Of a DNA stretch of 27,303 nucleotides, positions 12,173 through 13,314 are shown in pieces. The notes under the pieces are model-generated. The model was given only the letters and a program-made list of their open reading frames with translations. It had not been told where the DNA came from and searched no databases. Position 1 is the first letter of the stretch, and each line of letters starts with the position of its first letter. The translations under genes and the position numbers were made by a program. Source of the stretch: a virus (lineage: Duplodnaviria; Heunggongvirae; Uroviricota; Caudoviricetes); IMG/VR virus record IMGVR_UViG_2690315994_000016, positions 1 to 27,303 of that record; one strand, given 5' to 3'.

Positions 12173-12754
12173 ATGAAAGTCAACATAAAACAGATTGTTG
12201 GAAATTGGGAATTAGGTCTTGCGATGGATAAACACAGCATCCGCAGCATTCCCATTGGTTACGATGAGTGGGGACATATGCGGTTTGAGACGGAGCGTAC
12301 TGAGGTAGGCGAATCTCTTTTCCAGCTTAAATACCGTGACGATTGGTCACAAGTTAAGCCTTTAGCCCAATGCCTAGCAGAGCATGCCTTTCCTCATTTC
12401 AGCAATGTCGGGTTTATCGTTCCAATGGCTGCATCTAATCAGCGTGCACGCCAGCCAGTGACCGAAATAGCTCAGGAACTAGCCAAACTAGTTGGCAAAC
12501 CATGCTTCGATGACCTCTTGTTGAAAGCCCCCGGCGGGGCATCGCTAAAGAACCTGAATACAAAAGAAGAGAAAATCACGGCGCTGGGTAATTCGTTCTC
12601 TGTTAATGACAGTATTGAGAATAATGGCAACTGGAATGTCCTTATCATTGACGACCTCTACCATACAGGCGCATCTATGGAGGCTGCTTGTGCTGTGCTA
12701 AACGATTATACTAAGGTTAGAAGCATTTATGTTGCAGCTTTGACTTGGAGATAG
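12173..12754 (+). CDS. ComF-like phosphoribosyltransferase (PRTase) domain protein
   Basis: C-terminal NVLIIDDLYHTGASMEAA matches the PRPP-binding loop of type I PRTases/ComF; no N-terminal zinc finger. Confidence 0.6.
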   Translation: MKVNIKQIVGNWELGLAMDKHSIRSIPIGYDEWGHMRFETERTEVGESLFQLKYRDDWSQVKPLAQCLAEHAFPHFSNVGFIVPMAASNQRARQPVTEIAQELAKLVGKPCFDDLLLKAPGGASLKNLNTKEEKITALGNSFSVNDSIENNGNWNVLIIDDLYHTGASMEAACAVLNDYTKVRSIYVAALTWR

Positions 12755-12756
12755 TG

Positions 12757-13314
12757 ATGACTACGGTATTTGTTGCTGGTTCAATAACCATCAAAAACCT
12801 TGACACACTCATCGTGGATCGTCTGAAAAAAATTGTTAACTCGCGTTTTCGTATTGTAGTTGGTGATGCCAATGGTGTTGATTCATCTGTTCAACGCGTA
12901 TTGCTAGAACTTGGATGTGAAAAAGCCACAGTATTCAGTAGCTCAGAAAAACCGCGCAATAATCTTGGCTCATGGCCTGTACATGTAGTAAGTACTAGCC
13001 ATGCAGCCGGCACTCGCGCGTTTTTCACTGCGAAAGATCTCAAAATGGCAGAAGAAGCCGATTATGGATTAATGGTTTGGGATACGAAGAGCACGGGTAC
13101 TCTGAGTAACGTGATTGAGCTTCTTAAACGTAAAAAATACTCTGTCGTTTTTGTTAATAAATACAAAAAGTTCTTTATTATCAAATCTCCAGAGCACCTT
13201 GACGCTTTGATTAACTGCATGTCACCAGCCTCTTTGGAAAAAGCTGATGAAAAGATCAGATTGCGCGAAAAAATCAACCAACTAAAAAACGAGCAAATCC
13301 AGATGTTTATGTGA
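12757..13314 (+). CDS. SLOG/DprA-like Rossmann-fold protein with C-terminal coiled-coil
   Basis: VFVAGS...VVGDANGVDSSVQ...ADYGLMVWDTKSTGTLSNV resembles DprA/LOG/SLOG motifs; ATG 12757 with GGAG RBS overlapping stop of upstream PRTase gene. Confidence 0.45.
   Translation: MTTVFVAGSITIKNLDTLIVDRLKKIVNSRFRIVVGDANGVDSSVQRVLLELGCEKATVFSSSEKPRNNLGSWPVHVVSTSHAAGTRAFFTAKDLKMAEEADYGLMVWDTKSTGTLSNVIELLKRKKYSVVFVNKYKKFFIIKSPEHLDALINCMSPASLEKADEKIRLREKINQLKNEQIQMFM

Follow-up and report, generated by a model that had tools for sequence, protein, structure and literature searches.

A two-gene phosphoribosyltransferase–SLOG cassette in the cos–gpA slot of a P2/186-like prophage, a candidate minimal relative of ShosTA and PsyrTA

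The IMG/VR virus record IMGVR_UViG_2690315994_000016 carries, between a cos-like site and the replication gene gpA, two small adjacent genes that encode a ComF-family phosphoribosyltransferase (PRTase; gene g1) and a protein with a SLOG fold (gene g2). The window, meaning the whole stretch of 27,303 nucleotides analysed, is a P2/186-like prophage, and all coordinates are positions within it. We consider this cassette to be, probably, a prophage-carried abortive-infection or defence module of the toxin–antitoxin (TA) type and a minimal, distant relative of the ShosTA and PsyrTA systems. The description that suits the pair best is that of a third, minimal form of PRTase–SLOG architecture beside those two. 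The analysis itself establishes the folds, a conserved catalytic loop, the linkage of the two genes, their location, a one-sided decay and a tail motif in common with ShosA. Toxicity, an antitoxin role, a trigger, a substrate and protection against phages would be expected of g1 and g2 by analogy with these relatives. The features of the cassette are as follows.

12173–12754, + strand: g1, ComF-family PRTase of 193 amino acids, putative toxin/effector; stop codon TAG at 12752–12754
12638–12679, + strand: phosphoribosyl pyrophosphate (PRPP)-binding loop VLIIDDLYHTGASM, g1 residues 156–169
12747–12750, + strand: GGAG ribosome-binding site for g2, lying within the 3' end of g1 and 6 nt upstream of the ATG at 12757
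12757–13314, + strand: g2, SLOG-fold (YpsA/DprA-like) protein of 185 amino acids with a C-terminal helical extension, putative antitoxin/sensor
12862–12882, + strand: SLOG motif 1, GDANGVD, g2 residues 36–42
13078–13104, + strand: SLOG motif 2, WDTKSTGTL, g2 residues 108–116
13294–13311, + strand: tail QIQMFM, g2 residues 180–185, conserved as Q-x-x-[LM]-[FLI] (…NEQIQMFM)

An earlier note on this DNA had proposed a two-gene operon of a PRTase and a SLOG/DprA-like protein. Both open reading frames (ORFs) lie on the + strand where it placed them, the peptides it quoted (VLIIDDLYHTGASM, GDANGVD and DTKSTGTL, the last at g2 residues 109–116) are all present, and both domain calls are confirmed by predicted structures. 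Judged from its sequence, the PRPP-binding site of g1 is intact. Among 44 homologs D160, T165 and G166 of the loop are invariant and D161 is at least 90% conserved, and the loop aligns with the PRPP loop of APRT and with ShosT KILVIDDFCTEGNA (VIDD, containing the D331/D332 pair). Such strict conservation implies catalysis or PRPP binding. Profile matches were partial: E 0.01 against Pfam Pribosyltran, a sub-threshold 23.8 bits against TIGR00201 comF (cutoff 233.55), 1.3e-8 against the PADLOC ShosT model over profile positions 81–208 of 237 only, and E 1.5e-7 against the PADLOC PsyrT model over its C-terminal PRTase part only (positions 538–681 of 689). Sequence searches of PDB chains, with the single sequence and with a profile, matched the PRPP loop alone. 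The AlphaFold model built from the 44-sequence alignment (predicted local distance difference test, pLDDT, 91.7) matches a ComF-like fold over 162 aligned residues spanning the whole protein, and it includes the ComF-specific N-terminal domain and flexible loop beside the PRTase core. Cysteines occur only at 67, 111 and 173; the β-rich N-terminal domain has none, so the ComF zinc finger is absent. We rejected a housekeeping role in purine or pyrimidine salvage, as all equivalog models gave E>0.01 and fell far under their cutoffs.

The AlphaFold model of g2 (pLDDT 94.8, falling to 64 at the tail) finds its best fold match in YpsA. It shows a Rossmannoid fold of the SLOG type, in which β2 is followed by a Gly-rich loop and β4 by a loop containing GT. 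The part that the earlier note called a C-terminal coiled coil is a predicted helical extension (helices at residues 145–152, 157–167 and 169–184). Both SLOG motifs are strongly conserved among 40 g2 homologs. G36, D37, A38, G40 and D42 are invariant in the first, which hhalign places on ShosA SGLAYGIDQS, and W108, D109, S112, G114, T115 and L116 are invariant in the second, which aligns with ShosA EWGLKSGTS. Many further invariant residues are polar (R67, N68, N69, R87, K93, D94, D109 and E121), and the SLOG domain is basic (isoelectric point 9.8). Sequence searches with g2 returned no match in Pfam at E<=1 (including YpsA, DNA_processg_A/PF02481 and LDcluster4), NCBIfam or PDB sequences. A protein differing from g2 by one residue is labelled ‘LDcluster4/DNA_processg_A’ in a published hotspot catalogue (Rousset 2022, PMC9122126).

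By their coordinates g1 and g2 are tightly coupled and non-overlapping. We place the g2 start at ATG 12757, 2 nt past the g1 stop, because all 39 aligned homologs begin MTT or MT.. and RefSeq annotates the equivalent ATG; the same evidence rules out the overlapping TTG at 12745. The operon structure given in the earlier note, with its tight coupling and GGAG site, is supported, while the overlap of start and stop is not.

Relatives of g1 and g2 each number in the hundreds to thousands and keep a constant length, with 2070 clusters at E<=1e-3 in a representative library. The exact g1 protein occurs on 923 contigs and the exact g2 protein on 607. At least 364 stretches in a one-genome-per-species collection carry g2 relatives, whose hosts include Gamma-, Beta-, Delta- and Alphaproteobacteria, Acidobacteria and a Peptococcaceae metagenome-assembled genome. 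Pairing was assessed in two sets: the best 80 of these 364 loci, selected by g2, and 99 loci on viral and metagenomic contigs selected by g1, six of which are cut by a contig end. A g1 match lies immediately upstream in 73/80 g2-selected loci, ending 5–20 nt before g2, and a full g2 lies directly downstream in all 93 assessable g1-selected loci. The pairing is far beyond chance, and the genes are conserved as a unit.

Loss within the pair is one-sided. In 18/80 loci g1 is absent or reduced beside a full-length g2, the remnants showing internal deletions, C-terminal stubs and frameshifts; the converse was found in 0/93 (Fisher p = 3e-7). The decay covers at least nine lineages (a Pseudomonas group, Terracidiphilus, Vogesella, Cupriavidus, Rahnella, Serratia, a deltaproteobacterium, Kofleriaceae and an acidobacterium), and the asymmetry persists when only these nine are counted (p = 4e-4). 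Such decay fits the signature expected if g1 is harmful without g2, and it indirectly suggests that g1 is the toxin and g2 the antitoxin. The arrangement is also that of TA loci in general: two small, co-oriented, coupled genes on mobile elements (here prophages, plasmids and islands), the putative toxin losable and the putative antitoxin not. In Pseudomonas (loci L041, L048, L054, L065, L066, L068–L070, L072 and L074) g2 is intact and g1 is a C-terminal stub or gone, and these orphan SLOG ‘antitoxins’ are kept in a stable chromosomal locus.

ShosTA, a DprA-plus-PRTase system that E. coli APEC O1 carries in its P2 hotspot, confers protection from T7 and λ (Rousset 2022, PMC9122126), and later structural work has addressed its mechanism (PMC11961720, PMC12961424). 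ShosT is a 424-aa protein with HAD/PPase-like and PRTase domains whose D331A/D332A mutant is non-toxic (PMC11961720). ShosA, an antitoxin with SAM and DprA domains, binds single-stranded DNA (ssDNA) as well as RecA (PMC12961424) but not ShosT, and its disordered C-terminus gives it the instability that fires the system. The proposed trigger is either host shut-off mediated by T7 gp0.7 or ssDNA. The g1–g2 cassette resembles ShosTA in having two genes, a PRTase with the PRPP-loop aspartate pair, which matches the PADLOC ShosT model, and a SLOG-fold partner; in occupying the same slot in the same orientation directly downstream of cos; and in the flexible tail of the Qxx[LM][FL] type with which both ShosA and g2 end. 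The validated ShosTA construct likewise begins with P2 cos sequence, followed by the operon (PMC9122126). The earlier note could match the pairing to no named defence system. That view must be revised, as ShosTA was validated in the same hotspot and the pair is itself entry #98 in the supplementary hotspot catalogue of Rousset et al. 2022, where only entry #9 was tested and #98 was not (PMC9122126). The sequences of entry #98 are the same pair as in the window, with g2 one residue different. The pair has therefore been catalogued before, and the system itself is uncharacterised in the searchable literature.

PsyrTA/RqlHI likewise combines a PRTase toxin with a DprA-like SLOG antitoxin, and g2 weakly matches PsyrA (E 0.018). 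It differs in that the large RecQ-like helicase region of PsyrT is absent from g1, and g2 has about half the size of the PsyrA model. Strict membership in ShosTA or PsyrTA was rejected, since the defining domains (hydrolase and SAM in the one, helicase in the other) are absent.

The C-terminal tail provides a further link to ShosA. We scored a loose pattern, Q..[LMIF]([FLIM]|.[LIFM]), within the last 12 residues. It occurs in 118/120 g2 homologs against 29/120 composition-matched shuffled tails, and in 103/120 ShosA homologs (P0419–P0538) against 15/120 shuffled tails; among controls the counts are 0/120 for g1 homologs and 13/150 for neighbour proteins. ShosA ends in …QQLSLLGDE, within disordered residues 316–328, and variants among its homologs include QLSLF, GQLPLI, QFNLDI and QLGLEL. 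A tail common to two otherwise barely alignable families argues, at the level of sequence, that g2 and ShosA work alike. Consensus motifs for binding the bacterial β sliding clamp include QL[SD]LF and QLxLxL, and the tails of g2 and ShosA resemble what we take to be such motifs. Pu et al. 2025 ascribed ShosA instability to its C-terminus, which contains the tail motif; neither ShosTA paper mentions the clamp or DnaN. The motif could be a degron, a clamp tether or both. A tentative extension, to which we give a rather low probability, is that the SLOG partners ShosA and g2 are tethered by the tail to the β sliding clamp (DnaN), such that the module watches the replisome. Phage takeover or displacement of the host clamp, or competing ssDNA or replication intermediates, would then release g2 or lead to its degradation, and with the antitoxin lost the ComF-like PRTase would fire. 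If this were true, the 378-aa pair would be a minimal replisome-guard immune system derived from ComFC/DprA, and the ‘instability’ tail of ShosA would have a molecular account. In either case the common tail offers a testable link of these systems to the replisome, or else to proteolysis.

We hypothesize that g1 is a PRPP-dependent toxic effector that, by analogy with ShosT, consumes PRPP or phosphoribosylates a base or nucleotide, and that its action would derail nucleotide metabolism and DNA replication. In the uninfected lysogen g2, translationally coupled 1:1, would keep g1 harmless. An infecting phage that shuts down host expression, or that fills the cell with replication intermediates or ssDNA, would cause g2 to be lost or titrated, with its flexible Qxx[LM][FLI] tail acting as a degron or β-clamp tether, and the freed g1 would kill or arrest the cell before the intruder matures. 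Neutralisation by g2 might take one of several forms. It could be ShosA-like, by indirect repair or RecA/ssDNA sensing, as its basic SLOG domain might suggest, or it could reverse the PRTase product in the manner of LOG proteins, for which the invariant polar residues would be suited; LOG-type SLOG enzymes cleave the N-glycosidic bond, the reverse of PRTase chemistry (PMC9503650). It could also bind g1 directly, which is favoured by one natural-looking g1–g2 fusion (P0377, 404 aa). A second apparent fusion, P0387, was rejected: its g1 part is a frameshifted remnant, and the g2 after it is intact.

In natural transformation ComFC and DprA cooperate on ssDNA. This would favour a different reading of the pair, namely a non-toxic, ComFC/DprA-derived DNA-handling unit that binds incoming or replicating ssDNA, perhaps at the replisome via the g2 tail, and that either excludes superinfecting DNA directly or aids prophage recombination or replication, with no TA relationship. 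The binding of ssDNA and RecA by ShosA (PMC12961424) agrees with this, as do the existence of the P0377 fusion and a clamp-binding-like tail that would put g2 on DNA. We nonetheless think it unlikely. The N-terminal domain of g1 has no Cys, its comF score is about a tenth of the cutoff, and g2 has neither the SAM domain of DprA nor a PF02481 match; the other DprA accessory domains are missing too. The loss of g1 with retention of g2 would be unexpected for cooperating partners, and the strictly conserved PRPP loop calls for catalysis or PRPP binding. The related proposal that these are genuine competence genes was discarded on the same zinc-finger and ComF-cutoff grounds and on location, as g1 and g2 reside on prophages and plasmids, not in competence loci.

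The location of the pair is defined by the following features, which stand in the order terminase, portal, a DUF4145 gene (- strand), cos-like site, g1–g2, a DinI-like and a 62-aa gene (both - strand), and gpA.

10028–11065: portal gene
11074–11772, - strand: 232-aa DUF4145/PD-T7-4-like gene, in the portal–cos slot
11890–11901: cos-like GGCGTGGCGGGG
12026–12172, + strand: upstream part of the cargo insert, presumed promoter/5' untranslated region, identical in pair-carrying sister prophages
13879–13894: perfect LexA box CTGT-N8-ACAG, upstream of the 62-aa and DinI-like genes
13989–16403: gpA replication endonuclease

Alignment of sister prophages reveals a sharp homology break at ~11877, beside cos: the portal side is variable, and the stretch from cos through g1 is identical in pair carriers. 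Backbone sequence continues for ~150 bp past the break and is shared by 1249/5426 complete E. coli genomes. The common backbone homology ends at ~12025, with 11877–12172 found in full length in only 16 complete genomes, and restarts at ~13330, where it is present in 1125. Of the ~1100–1250 complete E. coli genomes with matches to the flanking backbone sequences, only 16–18 have the insert with the pair. These boundaries define a cargo insert of ~1.3 kb (~12026–13330), in the cos–gpA slot, that contains the pair. In P2 this slot is the location of old/tin, and in sister prophages it holds a 141-aa ORF or a pair of SIR2 and ATP-binding (ATPase) genes, which bears out the cargo hotspot the earlier note had recognised. 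A scan for sigma-70 and terminator consensus found no convincing promoter between cos and g1. The lower GC content attributed to the operon was also found (0.43–0.45 across g1–g2 against 0.55–0.60 in structural genes), although it is not confined to the pair, the entire 11–14 kb hotspot being similarly low. The cassette lies, as proposed, between the cos-like site and an SOS module. The LexA box is the single occurrence of the perfect CTGT-N8-ACAG core in the window, and the 62-aa (PHROG 698) and DinI-like genes behind it are consistent with an SOS-induced, 186-tum-like module.

A module in a prophage might also benefit the phage itself. Under such a reading the pair would serve counter-defence or nucleotide salvage, the SLOG protein degrading or sequestering a signal of the cyclic ADP-ribose type or a modified nucleotide, and the PRTase rebuilding nucleotides or NAD-related compounds from PRPP. 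Viral YpsA-clade SLOG domains are predicted to degrade immune signals (PMC9503650), the N-glycosidic cleavage of LOG-type enzymes is the reverse of the PRTase reaction, and the invariant polar residues of g2 would suit an enzyme or a specific ligand pocket. The fusions of g2-type SLOG relatives point both ways: their partners are Abi_alpha, HEPN_AbiU2, HTH_37/antidote or NADAR (P0345, P0243, P0279, P0364) and, in other cases, DUF4326, and NADAR and DUF4326, joined to close relatives, would suit a salvage or counter-defence role, whereas Abi_alpha, HEPN_AbiU2 and the antitoxin-type HTH would not. In P0345 (L201) and P0243 (L202) a g1-like gene still stands upstream. Each of these two rests on one short contig, and the Abi_alpha and HTH fusions were for that reason taken as weak evidence. 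Against a benefit to the phage, megablast and tblastn searches found the pair, and any relative of it, absent from 50,697 deposited phage genomes. The majority of loci lie on chromosomes or on plasmids without phage markers, the slot is expressed from the prophage like old/tin, and the decay asymmetry points to a toxin. We regard this reading as quite improbable. Three things count against both the DNA-handling and the phage-benefiting alternatives, namely the one-sided decay, the lack of the pair in deposited phage genomes and the hotspot context.

Relatives of g2 are found on 101 plasmids, 55 of them conjugative, and in one case lie beside restriction–modification genes and in another beside IncFII repA on a conjugative Klebsiella plasmid. 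This distribution raises the alternative of plain addiction, in which the pair would be a post-segregational killing TA that stabilises its prophage or plasmid with no anti-phage effect. The repA neighbour, the number of plasmids and the TA-like decay speak for it, as does the cassette remaining intact in a defective prophage (terminase E380*, described below). However, the slot repeatedly holds validated or predicted defence systems and the related ShosTA protects against T7 and λ, such that addiction alone appears to have only a small chance of being the whole account. Addiction and defence can also coexist, and this alternative overlaps with the TA-type defence module that we prefer.

Several observations weigh against the defence-module interpretation and its tie to ShosTA. 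The N-terminal HAD/PPase-like hydrolase domain of ShosT (residues 1–164) is missing from g1, and g2, at 185 aa, lacks the SAM domain of the 327-aa ShosA (SAM plus PF02481). Neither the PADLOC ShosA model nor PF02481 matches g2, while PF02481 is found in 120/120 listed ShosA homologs. Comparison of the family profiles with single ShosT and ShosA sequences by hhalign gave motif-level similarity only (E 0.014 and 0.029), the aligned regions being limited to the PRPP loop and the two SLOG loops. The closest structural relative of g1 is ComF, a benign competence protein, rather than ShosT. The decay asymmetry is in part phylogenetically clustered, with 10 of the 18 loci in Pseudomonas, where the locus adjoins a conserved amino-acid permease. 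Outside E. coli only ~6% of immediate neighbours match defence models, and P2 markers are present at only 9/179 non-selected loci. Finally, the P0377 fusion is easier to reconcile with a cis-regulated or two-enzyme unit than with a scheme of a labile antitoxin.

Other known pairings are less close. Brzozowski et al. 2019, following Burroughs et al. 2015, noted that a PRTase gene is strongly coupled to a branch of the YpsA family (PMC6459960), possibly the family of g2. This is a comparative-genomics remark without function, phenotype or mechanism. Type III retron PRTase effectors and Ophion OpnC, which are defence-associated PRTases, are reported to fall in one clade with ShosT and PsyrT (bioRxiv 10.1101/2025.09.30.679545) but have as partners a reverse transcriptase (RT) and non-coding RNA, or rSAM and PHP proteins, not SLOG. 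We rejected a Thoeris-like signalling pair because the cassette has neither a TIR nor another signal generator, and no effector domain is present in g2. If the cassette works as we propose, it would be the smallest known PRTase–SLOG immune or TA module (193 + 185 aa), free of accessory hydrolase, helicase and SAM domains, and it would be a cleaner subject than ShosTA for the use of PRPP by a defence PRTase, neutralisation by a SLOG protein and the trigger. Current detectors and annotation also miss this widespread ShosTA relative: the pair goes unrecognised by PADLOC models and Pfam, and RefSeq names g1 ‘ComF family protein’ and g2 ‘hypothetical protein’. The pair is of value as a minimal model system and for the lead given by the clamp motif.

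A second allele of the cassette (loci L090–L099, at about 7411–8558 in the numbering of those loci) pairs a g1-like gene of 195 aa with a g2 sharing 63% identity with that of the window. It sits between gpD and ogr in a P2-like prophage remnant, unlike the two classical P2 hotspots, and at most of these loci the remnant adjoins a hok-like gene and ihfA-pheST. At some other loci the neighbours are AbiL-type ATPases, retron-like RTs, Bro-N proteins, resolvases and integrases.

The portal–cos interval of the prophage is a second cargo slot, which in sister prophages holds AAA_13, AIPR, GAPS4-type PDDEXK, retron Ec67-family RT and unknown genes. In the window it is occupied by the 232-aa gene, whose product matches Pfam DUF4145 (4.5e-7), PADLOC PD-T7-4 (2.4e-6) and PHROG 1305 (2e-52). 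The large terminase gene (within 8265–10031) has an in-frame TAG at 9402–9404 (E380*) where sister prophages have GAG, splitting the 588-aa terminase into ORFs of 379 and 204 aa while the cargo genes are intact. The prophage is thus probably packaging-defective. Among the tail and morphogenesis genes, beside a gpS-like gene at 2685–3137, a 189-aa ORF (2110–2679, + strand) in a GC trough of 0.37 had no match in Pfam or PADLOC and is possibly a further moron. The early operon contains, directly downstream of gpA, a Dam-type D12 N6-adenine methyltransferase gene (16400–17317, - strand; PADLOC orphan MTase 3e-111), which occurs at the same position in the sister prophages examined. Just past the prophage integrase is a low-GC region (0.30–0.40), apparently a distinct defence island adjoining the prophage, with a 585-aa dCTP-deaminase-type defence gene (20860–22617, - strand; PADLOC dCTPase 2.4e-146), a second, P4-type integrase (23008–24279, + strand) and a gene for a 603-aa DUF6119 protein (24721–26532, - strand).

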